This document shows, one piece after another, positions 49,053-59,570 of a DNA stretch of 64,000 nucleotides (within the stretch, counting starts at the first letter, position 1; every line of letters starts with the position of its first letter). Location: the sequence record SRR31156797_2835; one strand, given 5' to 3'. Under the pieces are notes generated by a model that was given only the letters and a program-made list of their open reading frames with translations, did no database searches and had not been told where the DNA came from. A program made the translations under genes and the position numbers.

Positions 49053-52000
49053 ATGGCTCAGCTCGGACCCCACATTTCAATATCAGACGAACAGCTCATC
49101 ACCCGCGCCCTGGGCGTGGTAGAGATGGAGCAATATGCACACTGGCCCGAGGATGTAAAAAAACTCGCCGCCAATCTCGCCGCCGAACTTTTTCTGGTGC
49201 GCTATAATCCGTTCATCGACGCCTCACTGGTAAAAAAATCAGTTGCTCGTCGGCTGAACATGTCCAGGCCTTCTCTCGACAAGGAATTCGGTACCATCCT
49301 GACCAAAGGGATCGAACTTTTCTGGGAACGCTATGACCGGGAAATCGCCTTTCGAGAACGAATCATTGAACAGCTCAAACACTTCATGCCCGAAAACGGC
49401 ATTGGTGACGCACCGCACTCCCGTGTTGAATCAGCCACCGACGCTACCGACCTGCGCATGGAACTGCCCATGCTCGTCCTCTTTCCCGAAACCGAAGCGC
49501 AGATTCAGGGCATCGTCAAACTCGCCAATGAAATGCACTTCGGCATTATCCCGCGCGGTGGCGGCACCGGAGCAACTGGCGGGGCTATTCCGGCAGAAGC
49601 TCGCTCCGTCATTCTGTCCCTGACTCGATTCAAGGATATTCTGGATGTTGATCAAGAGAATCATATCCTGACATTGGAATCCGGGGTCATTACGCTAAAC
49701 GCCATTCAAGCGGCTGCCAAAAAGGATGTCCTTTTCACTGTTGATCCGGCTTCCAAGGCTGGTTCTTCCATTGGTGGTAACATTTCCGAAAACGCCGGTG
49801 GCCCATTCGCCTTTGAATATGGCACCACCATCGACAACATCCTGAGCTACCGGATGGTCAAACCAGACGGTTCGCTCATCGAAGTCCGCCGCAAGGACCA
49901 TCCGCGTCACAAAATTTATGAAGGTGAAACTGCGACCTTTGAAATCTTCGATGCAAACGGACACAAAATCGACACTGTTGAACTCGACAGCAGCGAAATC
50001 CGTGGCAAAGGCCTCGGCAAAGACGTGTCCAACAAATACCTGGGAGGGCTGCCCGGCGTACAGAAGGAAGGGACAGACGGCATCATCACCGTGGCCAGAT
50101 TCATCTGTTATCCGGCGCTGAAAAATTCTCGTGTGCTCTGCCTTGAATTCTTTGGACGTTCCATGCGCAATGCCATGCTCGTCATCAAGGACGTTGTTGC
50201 CCTGCGCGATACCATCCGAAAGGAAGGCGATCTGGTAAAGATTTCCGCTCTTGAAGAATTCGGCCCCAAGTACGTACAGGCCATCGACTACCAAACCAAG
50301 TCTACCCAGTACGAAGGCAATCCGATTTCCGTCCTCATTCTGCAACTGGACTCCGACGACAAAGAGGCACTTGACGCAGCATGTCAGAATGTGCTGGCCA
50401 TTGCCCAGCCCTTTGACGGCGTGGACATCTTTGCAGCCCGTGACGACAAGGAAGGTGAACTATTCTGGGAGGACCGGCACAAGCTGTCGGCCATTGCCAA
50501 GCGCACGTCAGGTTTCAAAATCAACGAAGACGTTGTCATTCCCATGGATGTCATCCCGGAATTCTCCGACTTCCTCGAAGACCTGAACCTCATTTACTTG
50601 GCAAAGATATACCGTACGACCCTTGAAAAAGTCCGCGCCATGACCGGCGTGAACGACGACGATGCTGACATCAGGGAAGCGTTTGGTCGCATCGACGATA
50701 TTCTGAGCGGCAAAGTAACGTCCCATGACTTTTCCGACACCGAACAGGAGGCTCAATGCCGTTACCTGTTCCTGAAATTGCGCGATTCCTACCCTCGTCT
50801 GGACCGCGAAATCAAAGCCATGTGGCAGGACATGCAGCTTCGGCGCATCGTCATTGCCAACCACATGCACGCAGGCGATGGTAACTGCCACGTCAACCTG
50901 CCGGTCAACTCCAACGACCCGGAGATGCTCGCCTCAGCCCACGAAGCCGCTGAAGTAGTCATGACCAAAGTTTTGGAAATGGGCGGTGAAGTCTCTGGCG
51001 AACATGGCATCGGCATCACCAAGATAGCCTTCCTGAGCGACAAGAAAATCAAGGACTTGTCCGAATACAAGAAGAATGTCGACCCGAACAATATCCTCAA
51101 TCCGGGAAAGCTCACCGCACGAAAGCTGCCGAGCGTACCATTCACGTTCTCGTTCAACCGGCTCATCAAGGACCTCGACGCCACTGCACTCAAGGACAAG
51201 GAAGCCCTCATGGGGCTTTTGAAAAACATTCAGACCTGTACCCGTTGCGGCAAGTGCAAACAGGTCTGCCCCATGTACCTCCCGGCCAAAGGACTTTTAT
51301 TCCACCCGCGCAACAAGAACATCAGTCTCGGCGCGCTCATTGAAGGCATTTACTACTCGCAGGTGCAAACCGGCGAACCGGCTCCTTCGCTCATGGCTGA
51401 GCTGCGCAATCTGATGGATCACTGCACAGCCTGCGGCAAATGCCAAGCCGCCTGTCCGGTCAAAATTGACTCTGCCGGAGCAGCCCTGTCCATGCGGTCA
51501 TTCCTCGACTCCAAAAACAAATCAGGCCATCAGCTTAAACAAATCGTGTTGCGCAATGTCGCCAAGAATCCGGCGTCCAACCTGCCGGTTGTTGCCAAGT
51601 TCCTGTCTGTCGGACAATCCCTTCAGGATAAGACCTTGGGCATGATACCGGCCCGCTGGCTTTCACGCATCGAATCCCCGATCGTCAAAAGTCGCAGTCC
51701 TCACATCGATTTCCGAAATCTGTTTGAAACTCTGGAGTTGGAAGGTGGCTCAGTCTTCAAAAATCCCAGAGCCGCAAGCGATAACACCGTGCTCTACTTT
51801 CCGGGTTGTGGAGGATCACTTTTCTCCCATTCCATCGGTATGGCCTCGGTCTACCTGCTTCTCAAATCCGGTGTAAACGTGGTCATGCCCGACCACCACA
51901 TGTGCTGCGGATACCCGTTGCTCGCCTCTGGTTGTGAAGAAGCATACAAGACCAACCGTCATCGCAACATTCAAGAGTTCCTCGACCTGTTCGTCAAGAC

Positions 52001-52580
52001 CGGCAAGGCTGGCCTCAAGGCCACAACCCTGCTCACGGCCTGCGGAACCTGTCGTGAATCGCTGGAAAGCTACGACTTCACCGGTGAAATGGAAGAACCA
52101 CTCAAGCAGATGGACGTGGTCCAATTCCTTATTGAACGCCTGCCTTCCATCCGCCAGTCCGAGTCGATCGTGTACCACGCTGCCTGTCATGCGGAATGGG
52201 TGGACGCGCCCAAAATCAAGGCCCCAGAACTGTATCGCACGGCACTGGCCGAACTGACCGGTGCCGATGTAAGTCTCTCACCCGGCTGCTGCGGAGAATC
52301 CGGCCTCGGCGCCTTGACTTCTCCCGGCATTTACAACCGGCTGCGCGAATGCAAACAGGACCAACTCAGTGATGATCTCGGCCACAACCGGGAAAAACCC
52401 ATTGTCGTTGGTTGCCCGTCCTGCAAGGTCGGCATAAAACGATCCATGCTCCAAATGAAACGCCCCAACCGAGTTCTTCATGCCGTGGAGTACTTGGCCG
52501 AAGCCGTGGGTGGGAAAAAATGGAAAAAGGAACTCAAGGACTTGCTCGAAAAAGTTGAACGTAAAGGCGCTGACAACTAA
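49053..52580 (+). CDS. FAD-linked 2-hydroxyacid oxidoreductase with fused 4Fe-4S and CCG domains (GlcD+GlcF type)
   Basis: PRGGGTG, GGNISENAGG, HAGDGNCH, GEHGIG, CTRCGKCKQVCP, CTACGKCQAACP, two CCG domains. Confidence 0.9.
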   Translation: MAQLGPHISISDEQLITRALGVVEMEQYAHWPEDVKKLAANLAAELFLVRYNPFIDASLVKKSVARRLNMSRPSLDKEFGTILTKGIELFWERYDREIAFRERIIEQLKHFMPENGIGDAPHSRVESATDATDLRMELPMLVLFPETEAQIQGIVKLANEMHFGIIPRGGGTGATGGAIPAEARSVILSLTRFKDILDVDQENHILTLESGVITLNAIQAAAKKDVLFTVDPASKAGSSIGGNISENAGGPFAFEYGTTIDNILSYRMVKPDGSLIEVRRKDHPRHKIYEGETATFEIFDANGHKIDTVELDSSEIRGKGLGKDVSNKYLGGLPGVQKEGTDGIITVARFICYPALKNSRVLCLEFFGRSMRNAMLVIKDVVALRDTIRKEGDLVKISALEEFGPKYVQAIDYQTKSTQYEGNPISVLILQLDSDDKEALDAACQNVLAIAQPFDGVDIFAARDDKEGELFWEDRHKLSAIAKRTSGFKINEDVVIPMDVIPEFSDFLEDLNLIYLAKIYRTTLEKVRAMTGVNDDDADIREAFGRIDDILSGKVTSHDFSDTEQEAQCRYLFLKLRDSYPRLDREIKAMWQDMQLRRIVIANHMHAGDGNCHVNLPVNSNDPEMLASAHEAAEVVMTKVLEMGGEVSGEHGIGITKIAFLSDKKIKDLSEYKKNVDPNNILNPGKLTARKLPSVPFTFSFNRLIKDLDATALKDKEALMGLLKNIQTCTRCGKCKQVCPMYLPAKGLLFHPRNKNISLGALIEGIYYSQVQTGEPAPSLMAELRNLMDHCTACGKCQAACPVKIDSAGAALSMRSFLDSKNKSGHQLKQIVLRNVAKNPASNLPVVAKFLSVGQSLQDKTLGMIPARWLSRIESPIVKSRSPHIDFRNLFETLELEGGSVFKNPRAASDNTVLYFPGCGGSLFSHSIGMASVYLLLKSGVNVVMPDHHMCCGYPLLASGCEEAYKTNRHRNIQEFLDLFVKTGKAGLKATTLLTACGTCRESLESYDFTGEMEEPLKQMDVVQFLIERLPSIRQSESIVYHAACHAEWVDAPKIKAPELYRTALAELTGADVSLSPGCCGESGLGALTSPGIYNRLRECKQDQLSDDLGHNREKPIVVGCPSCKVGIKRSMLQMKRPNRVLHAVEYLAEAVGGKKWKKELKDLLEKVERKGADN

Positions 52581-56301: not shown

Positions 56302-57150
56302 CTACCGAATTTCAACGCCGAAACGATCTACCCACGACTCTGATTCAAATTCTCCGGGGAAATAAATATACTTGGCTTTGGCCTTGATCTTTACTCGTTG
56401 GACCGGCCCCCACCATCTGGAATCGTAACTAGCTTCACGATTATCACCGAGAACGAAATACTCCTCCGCCCCCAATGTCAAAGGCCCAAAGTCGTCACGT
56501 ACTGGTACTATGCTCGTCTTGGTGTGTTGCACATACGATTCTTCAAGCGGATTATCGTTAACAAACACTTGTCGTTGACGAATCTCAACGGTCTCGCCGG
56601 GAAGTCCGACGACTCGTTTGATAAAATCTACATGCTCATTTTCCGGGAATGGGAAAATCACGATATCCCCTCGCTTCACGGCATAATCTAAGGCCAAAGT
56701 CTCCACAATAAAATGATCCCCAATCTTCAAAGTGGGCAGCATTGAACCGGACGGGGCCTTATATGCCTCATAAGATTGAGACATCAAATGATCAAAGACA
56801 AAACCGGATGCCAAACTCACGCACAGACAGAGAGCGTACACCCACCAACGATTCCATGGTCCGGGACTCAATTCGCGAAGCCCTTTGGCAGAAGCAAAAG
56901 CCTCCCATGCCACGAACACATTAAAACCCAACAATATGGCGAGACAAAGTAACGTCGAGACAAAATCCGACCAGAACGGAATCATGGCCAAAGAGTACAC
57001 CCACTCAGCGACAAAGAAGCCAACGCCCTTTTTCCACTGACCGTTATATACTTGACCGAAACCGGTAAACAAAAGGGAAAGCAGTCCTGCCAGCCACGGC
57101 TTTCTCGGCTTGAAATCAGACACACTCTGGATGGTATTTTGATCAGTCAT
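56302..57150 (-). CDS. lepB: Signal peptidase I with extra N-terminal TM region
   Basis: SGSMLPTL (Ser), FIKRVVGLPG (Lys), GDNREASYDSR. Confidence 0.9.
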   Translation of the reverse strand: MTDQNTIQSVSDFKPRKPWLAGLLSLLFTGFGQVYNGQWKKGVGFFVAEWVYSLAMIPFWSDFVSTLLCLAILLGFNVFVAWEAFASAKGLRELSPGPWNRWWVYALCLCVSLASGFVFDHLMSQSYEAYKAPSGSMLPTLKIGDHFIVETLALDYAVKRGDIVIFPFPENEHVDFIKRVVGLPGETVEIRQRQVFVNDNPLEESYVQHTKTSIVPVRDDFGPLTLGAEEYFVLGDNREASYDSRWWGPVQRVKIKAKAKYIYFPGEFESESWVDRFGVEIR

Positions 57151-57187: not shown

Positions 57188-58207
57188 TCAGGCTACCGGT
57201 ATGAAATCGCGCCCCAATTCATACCCGCGTCCATTCAGGAACTCGGCGATATCTTCGCGCGCTCCCCGACTAGCCACATACGGCAAACAAAACGCCTCAC
57301 CGGCATTGGGAATATCATTGCGGTCGACCACTGGCACCCCGTTGACGATATGGCCTATCTTACGCGGGTCGATATCATAATAAGCGGCAAACTCAACACC
57401 ATGAGCGAGCAAAAGATCTGCCCGCTTGCGAGTGGTCCGTCCTGAGCCAAGAATATGAACCACAGGGTGCAACGGATTGTTCCGGGCCAGCCACCGAGCA
57501 AGGTATTCAGTCTTGATACGATAGAAAGCATCCACATCATATCTGGGGTGATTACGCGACAACCGTGTGGGAGGATCGTTCCAAATAAGCAACTCCTCGT
57601 CCACCTTCATCATGCGCACGCCCGCTTCCAACCAGCGCAGCAGCAGTTCATAATCTTCGGGAAAATCTCCATCACGGTACATGCCGTATTCGTCAATGCA
57701 CTCCCTCCGATACATGATGGACGGATTCGGCACAGGAAATTCAACGAAACGATTCAAGGTAATGGCGTCATGCGACAGAACCGTATTAGTCCAGTCCACA
57801 TAATGAGCATATCCAGCACAAGCATCACGACACCCGCCGAATTGGATACGACAGCCAACCAACCCGACATCTGGGTTCTCATCCAACAGTCTGGACTGAG
57901 CCGCCAACCGCTCCGGCAACGACTCATCATCCGCATCCATGCGGGCTATATACCTGCCACGAGCCACCTCAATAGCCGCATTAGCCGCCGCAATCACACC
58001 GCCATGCTCGATAGACACAACACGAATACGAGAATCCCGGCGCGCATATTCGGCCAGGATTCCCGATGTATTGTCCGTACTGCCGTCATCCACGGCCACC
58101 ACTTCGAAATCCGTACAAGTCTGCCCAAGCAGGCTATCAAGCGCTTTGCTCACGGTCTCCCCACAATTAAAGCAGGGCATAGTCACGGAAATCTTCGGTA
58201 TAGACAT
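57188..58207 (-). CDS. GT2 glycosyltransferase with C-terminal Rossmann-like domain (QTGAL/B3GNTL1-like)
   Basis: VDDGSTD, RMDADD (DxD), PEDY; C-domain ILGSG...YDIDPRKIG...GRDF. Confidence 0.85.
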   Translation of the reverse strand: MSIPKISVTMPCFNCGETVSKALDSLLGQTCTDFEVVAVDDGSTDNTSGILAEYARRDSRIRVVSIEHGGVIAAANAAIEVARGRYIARMDADDESLPERLAAQSRLLDENPDVGLVGCRIQFGGCRDACAGYAHYVDWTNTVLSHDAITLNRFVEFPVPNPSIMYRRECIDEYGMYRDGDFPEDYELLLRWLEAGVRMMKVDEELLIWNDPPTRLSRNHPRYDVDAFYRIKTEYLARWLARNNPLHPVVHILGSGRTTRKRADLLLAHGVEFAAYYDIDPRKIGHIVNGVPVVDRNDIPNAGEAFCLPYVASRGAREDIAEFLNGRGYELGRDFIPVA

Positions 58208-58210
58208 GAG

Positions 58211-59128
58211 TTACTCAGCCTCGGCCTTGCTTACCTTCACAGCCGCCTTAATGCGACAGACCGAACATGTGCCGGCACTGGTTGGTGATCCACATTCAAT
58301 GCACGGCTTGAGTTCATCCCCAATCTCTTTTTCCAAACCGGCGAAGGCTGGCTTCCCTTTTTTGAGAAAAGATTGGTAGAATTGCAACTTCTGGCCGGGG
58401 CTACGATATTCAAGTTCCCCCCACAATTCCTTATGATGAGTAAAACTTGCGCCTGAAGCATACGGACACGGGTCCGAATGAATTTCAATCCCTTTAAGAA
58501 ATGCGTAGTTGGCAGTCTCGAATTCACTCAATCGGAAAAGTGGCTTTACCTTACGCACAAAGCCATCGCTGGCAGGTAAGGTTGGCCCTTGATCGGACAG
58601 ATACGCTGTATCCCAGCGCAAAGTATTTGCGAAAAGTCGAGCCACTTCATCATCCAAATTATGACCGGTAGCAAGTACATCAAAACCTTCTTCCCGAGCA
58701 ATTCGGTTAAAGTGATGCCGTTTCATCTTGCCACACACGGAACACACCGGCCGTTTGACGTATTGCTTGATATCCGGGATGGGCAACCCCCATGTCTCCA
58801 TTTCAAACACACGCAGATCGAGGTCGTGCAGATTGCAGAAATCCTCGACTTTCTTGCGCGCCTTTTCCGAAGAGTTGGGAATACCAAGGTCGATATGCAG
58901 GCCGGTGACATCATACCCTTGCAATTTCAATTCAAGCATCAGGGCCAAAGAATCCTTGCCACCGGACAACGCCACAAGAATACGCTCGTCATGGGTAAAC
59001 ATCTTTTCCCGGCGGATAGCGGTTTCCACCTGTTTGGTGAAGAAAAGCGGAAAACAATCCTTACAGAACCCGGAATGATGGCTGGGTAATGCGACGCAGG
59101 CAGTCTTTTTACAACGAATACATTTCAT
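58211..59128 (-). CDS. ttuA: TtuA/Ncs6-type tRNA 2-thiolation enzyme (PP-loop ATPase, Fe-S)
   Basis: N- and C-terminal Zn fingers, SGGKDS, CSVC plus PCP cluster ligands, TGHNLDD. Confidence 0.75.
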   Translation of the reverse strand: MKCIRCKKTACVALPSHHSGFCKDCFPLFFTKQVETAIRREKMFTHDERILVALSGGKDSLALMLELKLQGYDVTGLHIDLGIPNSSEKARKKVEDFCNLHDLDLRVFEMETWGLPIPDIKQYVKRPVCSVCGKMKRHHFNRIAREEGFDVLATGHNLDDEVARLFANTLRWDTAYLSDQGPTLPASDGFVRKVKPLFRLSEFETANYAFLKGIEIHSDPCPYASGASFTHHKELWGELEYRSPGQKLQFYQSFLKKGKPAFAGLEKEIGDELKPCIECGSPTSAGTCSVCRIKAAVKVSKAEAE

Positions 59129-59137
59129 AAATATCCC

Positions 59138-59335
59138 TTAACCTGCGGAGGTAACTTTGCGAACCATGAGCGTATCACCGTTTTTCAACATACGGTCCGC
59201 AGTGAGTAGCTCACCGTCGCGCACGACGATAGCCATAGTGGAACGGAGCTTCAATTTATTCAGCACAGCAATGACCGAGCGAGTGTTGCTCATCTCGATC
59301 TGCTCTCCGTCCGGTTCAAGATTAACCGTAATCAT
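59138..59335 (-). CDS. ThiS/MoaD/TtuB-like ubiquitin-fold sulfur carrier
   Basis: 65 aa, VVRDGELL..D..LKNGDTL..RKVTSAG; AAGGAG SD; directly upstream of ttuA. Confidence 0.8.
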   Translation of the reverse strand: MITVNLEPDGEQIEMSNTRSVIAVLNKLKLRSTMAIVVRDGELLTADRMLKNGDTLMVRKVTSAG

Positions 59336-59570
59336 ATATGTCTCCTTTTCCGCCAGTCGCTTTGATGGCCAGCGGGTTGGGTGGACACTACAGAGGAAGC
59401 GGTTCCTGTTCAAGCCCCCTGTCTCGGAGGGGAATTACACAGAAAACATAGTCACTCCGGGGCACCACGACGTTATGTTAGAATCTGAATGAAAACATCA
59501 AACCGTTGTTGACCCAAAAGAGGGGAATCGCGTATGTTGCCAATAAGGGAATAATCCTAAGGAGGATTTC

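Follow-up and report, generated by a model that had tools for sequence, protein, structure and literature searches.

A 64,000-nucleotide (nt) stretch of DNA from sequence record SRR31156797_2835 (here called the window) encodes a 339-amino-acid (aa) glycosyltransferase whose family is sharply delimited, is spread over many bacterial phyla, and, judged by sequence features, seems to correspond in bacteria to the eukaryotic enzyme B3GNTL1, also called QTGAL. PMC11755703, citing Zhao et al. 2023, describes B3GNTL1 as QTGAL, which makes galactosyl-queuosine (galQ) in the transfer RNA (tRNA) for tyrosine, tRNA-Tyr. We tentatively favor, with somewhat less than even confidence, the reading that the window protein is a QTGAL-type tRNA (queuosine) glycosyltransferase that would work independently of TtuA, the predicted tRNA thiolase encoded beside it (Table 1). 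Three elements of this reading, namely, homology to QTGAL beyond the catalytic core, an RNA acceptor, and the identity of the modified nucleoside, are what we infer from the data set out below.

Domain matches and structure modeling indicate that the protein is a soluble, inverting enzyme of glycosyltransferase family 2 (GT2), in which a catalytic domain of the GT-A fold is predicted to be rigidly joined to a Rossmann-like domain. Pfam family PF00535 matched residues 7 to 173 (E = 1.5e-32), and the catalytic domain carries the motifs DDGS, RMDADD (containing the DXD motif), and an invariant E184-D185 pair. Across 77 diverse family sequences, D94 (in the DXD), E184, D185, W209, and R215 were invariant, and within RMDADD the residues D91, D93, and D94 were all near-invariant or invariant. 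An AlphaFold2 (AF2) model of the full enzyme, made with the 77-sequence alignment, was a single rigid two-domain structure with a predicted local distance difference test (pLDDT) score of 97.5 and a predicted template modeling (pTM) score of 0.93. Over residues 1 to ~240, the best matches were to GT-A folds, with VIA Z scores of 24.7 for K4CP/chondroitin polymerase (2z86), 24.2 for SpsA (1h7l), and 23.5 for TarS (5tze), at 19 to 27% sequence identity to structures of this type; SunS, a GT2 enzyme that carries out S-glycosylation, scored 12.9. The window enzyme shares with SpsA, K4CP, and TarS the GT-A fold and the DXD motif. The substrates of those three are glycans or teichoic acid, however, and their genes belong to envelope loci, whereas the gene studied here lies outside any envelope locus, and none of the three aligns to the C-terminal domain of the enzyme as a Rossmann-like module. 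In NCBIfam, the best scores were 97.5 bits for EpsE (cut-off, 450), 85.8 bits for TuaG (cut-off, 400), and 44.9 bits for WcaA (cut-off, 382), and these matches were restricted to the N-terminal core. An envelope or exopolysaccharide GT2 of the EpsE, TuaG, or WcaA type fits the protein poorly, as every equivalog cut-off was missed widely and no polysaccharide, lipopolysaccharide, or teichoic-acid cluster surrounds the gene within ~8 kb.

The C-terminal domain, modeled alone, had a pLDDT of 92.9. Its nearest fold (VIA Z = 11.5) was 3nkl, the N-terminal domain of a WbpM/PglF-type dehydrogenase, with a root mean square deviation of 2.3 and 90 residues aligned, followed by WbaP (8t53; 10.4), Rex (9.7), and VioB/PglD (8.2), with 87 to 92 residues aligned; a family profile also matched the NAD-binding domain of Rex (E = 5.6e-4). 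The small Rossmann-like fold is common to the N-terminal domains of WbpM/PglF, WbaP, Rex, and NeuD/PglD/VioB on the one hand and the GT2 enzyme on the other. Unlike in those proteins, the domain is here fused behind a GT-A domain and has three near-invariant arginines in its Gly-rich loop, which reads G-x-G-R-x-x-R-x-R and replaces GxGxxG. A near-invariant aspartate follows strand 2, and the median isoelectric point (pI) of the last 100 residues was 9.6 in 77 family members, compared to 5.8 for the rest of the protein. The model and motifs of the domain would suit the binding of a nucleotide or RNA.

The family stands apart from other GT2 enzymes in the genomes that carry it. We searched 121 Desulfovibrionaceae genomes, and 74 had exactly one full-length match each (E <= 7.7e-94, extending at least to residue 331); the remaining GT2 matches in these genomes had E values of 5.5e-35 or more and ended by about residue 260, with one exception that is taken up below. 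Carriers include species of Pseudodesulfovibrio, Maridesulfovibrio, Halodesulfovibrio, and Nitratidesulfovibrio. By the names of close homologues of its proteins, the window itself belongs to Pseudodesulfovibrio, a genus of sulfate reducers. Searching representative sequences (50% identity) exhaustively with residues 200 to 339 yielded 740 of them at an E-value cut-off of 1e-3, and 312 at a cut-off of 1e-10; the best 150 of the 740 were mostly proteins of 320 to 350 aa with the match at the C terminus, and the remainder were fragments. At least 587 relatives were found in a scan of one genome per species. The best 80 of these belonged to Desulfovibrionales, Verrucomicrobiota and Kiritimatiellota, Bacteroidota (including Balneolaceae and Ignavibacteria), Acidobacteriota, and Rokubacteria/Methylomirabilota, together with a few Proteobacteria and one record titled "Cyanobacteria bacterium". 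Identity across phyla was ~34 to 48%, which, together with the single copy in the Desulfovibrionaceae genomes searched, suggests that the family has one conserved, universal substrate. Separately, in one 399-aa protein (P0163), which may be a chimera or come from a miscalled gene, a Prim-Pol domain (PF09250, E = 3.1e-14) precedes sequence matching the C-terminal part of the GT2 family (match over residues 120 to 399).

Similarity to B3GNTL1 was examined by motif and by sequence features. The original prediction had paired five sets of strings in the GT2 enzyme with putative strings of the human protein. All five bacterial sets (LVGCRI..HYVDWTN, PEDY..VDEELL, HILGSGR, AYYDIDPRKI, and ELGRDF) are present, and they coincide, in the paired order, with motifs conserved in the family. 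Six segments of the proposed human strings shared no more than one 5-mer with any protein they were compared with, a result that carries no weight either way. In line with the prediction, the enzyme is no generic envelope GT2; it has a family-specific C-terminal domain and family-specific motifs precisely at the positions that had been named. In the ESM Atlas, where a look-up scores similarity of features without an alignment or an E value and cluster names are automatic, the clusters of the bacterial family itself scored 0.99 with 223 to 238 features. With clusters that carry the additional Pfam models of that family excluded, the nearest named cluster was eukaryotic (score 0.98, with 198 of 256 features) and bore the B3GNTL1-like name [quoted passage not shown]; the clusters after it were generic GT2s (PF00535 only), at 0.94 with 162 features and 0.93 with 152. 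Judged by these sequence features, the similarity of the family to the B3GNTL1-like cluster goes beyond what is generic to GT2. QTGAL/B3GNTL1, a member of GT2 in CAZy, resembles the bacterial enzyme in being a soluble GT2 of ~340 to 360 aa with no membrane segment; it is eukaryotic and the 339-aa enzyme bacterial, and the likeness between the two rests on the feature-based look-up.

The genomic setting of the gene looks like that of a housekeeping gene. We scanned the flanks in 55 loci from outside Desulfovibrionales, which gave 97 open reading frames (ORFs) around the gene after seven ORFs of more than 880 aa were dropped. These 97 ORFs matched 72 Pfam families, the commonest of which (3-keto-disaccharide hydrolase, PALP, MsrA, and Sua5/TsaC) had three members each. 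No glycosyltransferase or polysaccharide family was among the 25 commonest flanking families, no polysaccharide gene was among 20 hand-picked neighbors, and no neighbor of the GT2 family was conserved across phyla. The location outside polysaccharide loci that had been proposed for the window extends to these 55 loci of other phyla. Genes for tRNA modification adjoin the GT2 gene in separate lineages: TtuA in Desulfovibrionales, Sua5/TsaC in three loci (including L066), and a MiaB-type methylthiotransferase in one (L052). One family member is, in addition, fused to a TudS-type domain (P0264, described below). The other neighbors checked by hand were unrelated housekeeping genes. An envelope glycosyltransferase fits less well than a housekeeping enzyme acting on one universal substrate, which probably contains a nucleotide, given the single copy, the high conservation across phyla, and the scattered, non-glycan contexts, and given also the occasional tRNA-modification neighbors, the basic, arginine-rich second domain of nucleotide-binding type, and the B3GNTL1-like cluster as the nearest one outside the family. 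Loci of the Opitutaceae type (L064, L067, L071, L075, L090, L095, L099, L102, L109, and related loci) have a recurrent arrangement among neighbor clusters lying outside the GT2 gene: the GT2 gene lies downstream of msrA (PF01625) in 10 and upstream of genes for a PnuC-type NMN transporter (PF04973; 9 loci) and an AAA_28 protein (PF13521; 7 loci). All of these loci are kin.

A number of observations weigh against a QTGAL-type, RNA-directed function. The members of the B3GNTL1-like Atlas cluster are mostly diatom proteins of 511 aa. A full-length search with the GT2 enzyme had close Desulfovibrionaceae relatives, and no eukaryotic B3GNTL1, among the matches listed. A 200-aa C-terminal fragment, compared with proteins of more than 350 aa, gave 84 matches among 903 candidates, all of them bacterial or unnamed, and the same was true of the best 120 of 228 matches to a 49-sequence profile of this fragment. 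PDB searches by sequence and by fold returned no QTGAL/B3GNTL1 chain, and cluster look-ups of 15 atypical family members returned no eukaryotic name. The clean split of the family from other GT2 enzymes has its exception in one Desulfovibrionaceae genome (G116:C1:5967778-5968677; E = 2.6e-21, 34% identity, residues 6 to 307), where the match contains an internal TGA; this could be a family paralogue in decay. In the window's own protein, the C-terminal domain is neutral (pI 7.1), and the tRNA-modification genes near family members are few and are kin within each lineage. According to PMC10690763, queuosines that carry a sugar are known only from animals, vertebrates among them. In the literature, we found no paper that combines B3GNTL1 with horizontal gene transfer and none that combines TtuA, a glycosyltransferase, and Desulfovibrio; judged by the titles listed, bacterial homologues are not a topic of the work on QTGAL. 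To our knowledge, no glycosylated queuosine has been reported from bacteria, though no search was aimed at surveys of bacterial tRNA nucleosides.

The presence of TGT, which was followed for its bearing on queuosine, discriminates little. TGT scored 562.9 bits in the genome nearest to the window (G001) and was found in 118 of the 121 Desulfovibrionaceae genomes, including all 74 with the GT2 gene; the three TGT-free genomes also had no GT2 gene. It was present as well in 44 of the 48 GT2-bearing genomes of other phyla, and in 14 of 14 controls. The co-occurrence is compatible with a queuosine acceptor but says little, because TGT is nearly universal.

The same evidence bears on the possibility that the acceptor is not RNA at all and is instead a protein, a glycan (soluble or linked to a lipid), a nucleotide-sugar, or another small metabolite that contains a nucleotide, so that the adjacency to ttuA would be accidental and the likeness to B3GNTL1 one of fold alone. 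We consider this a serious possibility, although it falls short of being probable. Every relative of the GT-A domain with a solved structure works on glycans, teichoic acids, or lipid-linked acceptors, and the best NCBIfam matches are of the EpsE, TuaG, and WcaA types; those matches, however, fall far below the equivalog cut-offs (for EpsE, 97.5 bits versus 450). The C-terminal domain speaks in the same direction: the Gly-rich loop with an aspartate after strand 2 is the classic signature of mono- or dinucleotide ribose binding, and the nearest folds (the WbpM/PglF-type 3nkl, WbaP, and the VioB/PglD N-terminal domains) come from sugar-nucleotide and polysaccharide enzymes that bind nucleotide-sugars, so that a small nucleotide-sugar ligand fits as well as RNA. 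The gene contexts are divided. The recurrence of pnuC and the AAA_28 gene downstream in Opitutaceae-type loci and the lack of TtuA linkage outside Desulfovibrionales would suit a non-RNA acceptor, but polysaccharide, sugar-nucleotide, and export genes adjoin the GT2 gene neither in the window nor in the 55 loci of other phyla, and the lack of a conserved partner gene would be unusual for a small-molecule or glycan pathway. One conserved universal substrate, as suggested by the single copy and the cross-phylum identity, and the B3GNTL1-like name of the nearest cluster outside the family also argue against it.

The original prediction had placed the GT2 gene in one system with the sulfur-carrier candidate and the TtuA-type thiolase gene that precede it, and this part did not survive comparison across genomes. 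With flanks of 1.5 kb, TtuA was beside the GT2 gene in 23 of 30 Desulfovibrionaceae loci. Measured from start to start in the 74 GT2-bearing Desulfovibrionaceae genomes, the distance between the two genes was up to 2 kb in 39 genomes and 2 to 5 kb in 5 (44 of 74 within 5 kb in all); in 8 genomes the genes were more than 5 kb apart on the same contig (57 kb to 2 Mb), in 21 they were on different contigs, and in 1 TtuA was not found. Conversely, 42 Desulfovibrionaceae genomes had TtuA without the GT2 gene, and TtuA was present in 115 of the 121 genomes regardless of GT2. Among 80 species-level GT2 loci, 13 contained TtuA, all 13 of them Desulfovibrio-type or unclassified records, and none of the loci from other phyla did. 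Of the 48 GT2-bearing genomes of other phyla, 6 had a TtuA-type gene (E <= 2.1e-72), 2 had weak PP-loop matches, and 40 had none. The adjacency of GT2 and TtuA is thus an arrangement specific to Desulfovibrionales, and the operon argument, by which a TtuB/TtuA neighborhood would point to the function of the glycosyltransferase, fails beyond this one order. As the adjacency is lineage-specific and the family highly conserved, the GT2 family cannot depend on TtuA.

These counts also bear on a second alternative, in which the acceptor would be RNA other than at queuosine, for example, a uridine 2-thiolated by TtuA/TtuB that is O- or S-glycosylated in Desulfovibrionales, with the three-gene cluster forming a true pathway. 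We regard this as improbable. It would account for the gaps of 9 and 3 nt in ttuB-ttuA-GT2 and for the 39 of 74 genomes with TtuA within 2 kb (44 within 5 kb), and S-glycosylating GT2 enzymes such as SunS exist. A gene fusion points the same way: a 489-aa protein on one 74-kb contig (P0264) joins a TudS-type 2-thiouracil desulfidase domain (PF04463, E = 1.8e-32) to a GT2 family member in its full length, and PMC10611767 and PMC11417400 describe TudS/RudS enzymes as acting on thiouracil nucleotides and on 4-thiouridine (s4U) in tRNA. This fusion is, however, a single sequence, one protein on one contig, and a TudS-like gene lay beside the GT2 gene in none of 110 loci and not in the window. A dependence on thiolation is also at odds with the 42 of 48 GT2-bearing genomes of other phyla that have no TtuA-type gene, with the 42 Desulfovibrionaceae genomes that have TtuA and no GT2 gene, and with the 29 of 74 in which the two genes are far apart or on different contigs. 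A family so conserved should keep one acceptor everywhere, and that acceptor therefore cannot depend on TtuA.

The two genes upstream are predicted to form a separate tRNA 2-thiolation pair, ttuB-ttuA. The thiolase matched PF01171 (PP-loop; E = 5e-12) and PF22082 (TtuA_LIM_N; 29.1 bits, cut-off 27), and its score of 254.1 bits against NF049949 (TtuA), below the equivalog cut-off of 450, supports membership at the level of the family only. It contains SGGKDS, CxxC pairs at the N and C termini, and three further cysteines; by analogy with TtuA, these cysteines are presumably Fe-S and zinc-finger ligands. The small carrier matched ThiS (PF02597) weakly (18.1 bits, cut-off 22.5; E = 0.0039). In 25 Desulfovibrionales loci (L001-L010, L014, L017-L019, L028, L031, L033, L036, L037, L039, L045, L053, L063, L107, and L110), its gene immediately precedes that for TtuA. 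A Gly-Gly C terminus is typical of TtuB, ThiS, and MoaD; the carrier ends in S-A-G in the window and in S-x-G (x = A, V, R, T, S, or L) in 25 of 25 loci, never in Gly-Gly, so that the terminal glycine alone is kept. The pair resembles the TtuA-TtuB system of Thermus and Pyrococcus, which makes 2-thiouridine in tRNA (s2T54), in setting a PP-loop enzyme with a LIM-type zinc finger beside a small carrier candidate with a weak beta-grasp-like match. It differs in that the thiolase falls under the equivalog cut-off, the carrier ends in S-x-G, the nearest genome also encodes MnmA, and the hosts here (such as Pseudodesulfovibrio and Maridesulfovibrio) are, by name, non-thermophiles. The known TtuA-TtuB system has no glycosyltransferase component.

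The layout of the three genes themselves was as the original prediction had described it. ORF calls and translations bore out three ORFs on the minus strand at the predicted coordinates (Table 1), with intergenic gaps of 9 nt from carrier to thiolase and 3 nt from thiolase to GT2, and the claim that polysaccharide genes are absent nearby proved correct within ~8 kb of the GT2 gene in the window. The three genes are possibly co-transcribed. The sigma70-like promoter proposed for them fared less well. The string TTGAAC-17-TAGTGT is present, but it is weak, with 7 of the 12 sigma-70 consensus positions matched (4 + 3), and a promoter scan of the region did not report it; that scan gave 4 promoter-like sites, compared to 4.1 expected from shuffled sequences.

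Table 1. Positions in the window of the three-gene cluster, the domains of the GT2 enzyme, and nearby features
Feature	Coordinates	Strand	Length (aa)	Basis
Sulfur-carrier candidate	59138..59335	-	65	ORF and translation; weak ThiS match
TtuA-family PP-loop tRNA 2-thiolase (predicted)	58211..59128	-	305	PF01171, PF22082, NF049949
GT2 glycosyltransferase, whole gene	57188-58207	-	339	PF00535
Predicted GT-A (GT2) catalytic domain, residues 1 to ~243	57479..58207	-		PF00535, fold matches, AF2 model
Predicted Rossmann-like C-terminal domain, residues ~244-339	57191..57478	-		Profile, fold, and conservation evidence
Signal peptidase I (LepB)	56302..57150	-		PF10502, E 5e-39; TIGR02227, 130.8 bits
Promoter-like string TTGAAC-17-TAGTGT	59385..59413	-		Weak consensus match
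Large fused oxidoreductase	49053-52580	+	1175	PF01565, PF02913

The lepB gene starts 37 nt downstream of the GT2 gene on the same strand. It follows GT2 in the 4 loci of the window's own genus (of 30 loci) and likewise in L031 and L032, the closest relatives, and it is probably not part of the function of the GT2 enzyme. On one side, the cluster as a whole is flanked by genes for RuvX, YceG, Ppx-GppA, and LepB; on the other, the neighbors encode a response regulator, an M50 peptidase, TrpRS, and an aminotransferase. Elsewhere in the window, the large fused oxidoreductase listed in Table 1 combines FAD-binding oxidase domains (PF01565 and PF02913) with 4Fe-4S dicluster motifs and two CCG cysteine-rich domains.

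The enzyme would most likely take a sugar from a UDP-sugar and transfer it to a nucleotide-containing acceptor. Our best guess for this acceptor would be queuosine-34 of tRNA, modified on its cyclopentenediol while the arginine-rich C-terminal domain holds the RNA. The enzymes of sugar-modified queuosines were first named in 2023. It is possible, though we would not call it probable, that queuosine or another tRNA nucleoside is glycosylated in bacteria of several phyla (Desulfobacterota, Verrucomicrobiota, Bacteroidota, Acidobacteriota, and Methylomirabilota) by a QTGAL-type two-domain GT2 enzyme that, in prokaryotes, was ancestral to the animal enzyme or served as its donor. Should the acceptor prove not to be RNA, the family would still be a large, uncharacterized, housekeeping-like family of glycosyltransferases with an unusual arginine-rich Rossmann module. 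The question is testable in culturable sulfate reducers. If bacteria do glycosylate tRNA in this way, tRNA glycosylation would not be an animal invention, and the family would bring a new class of tRNA modification to bacteria and point to the evolutionary origin of QTGAL.

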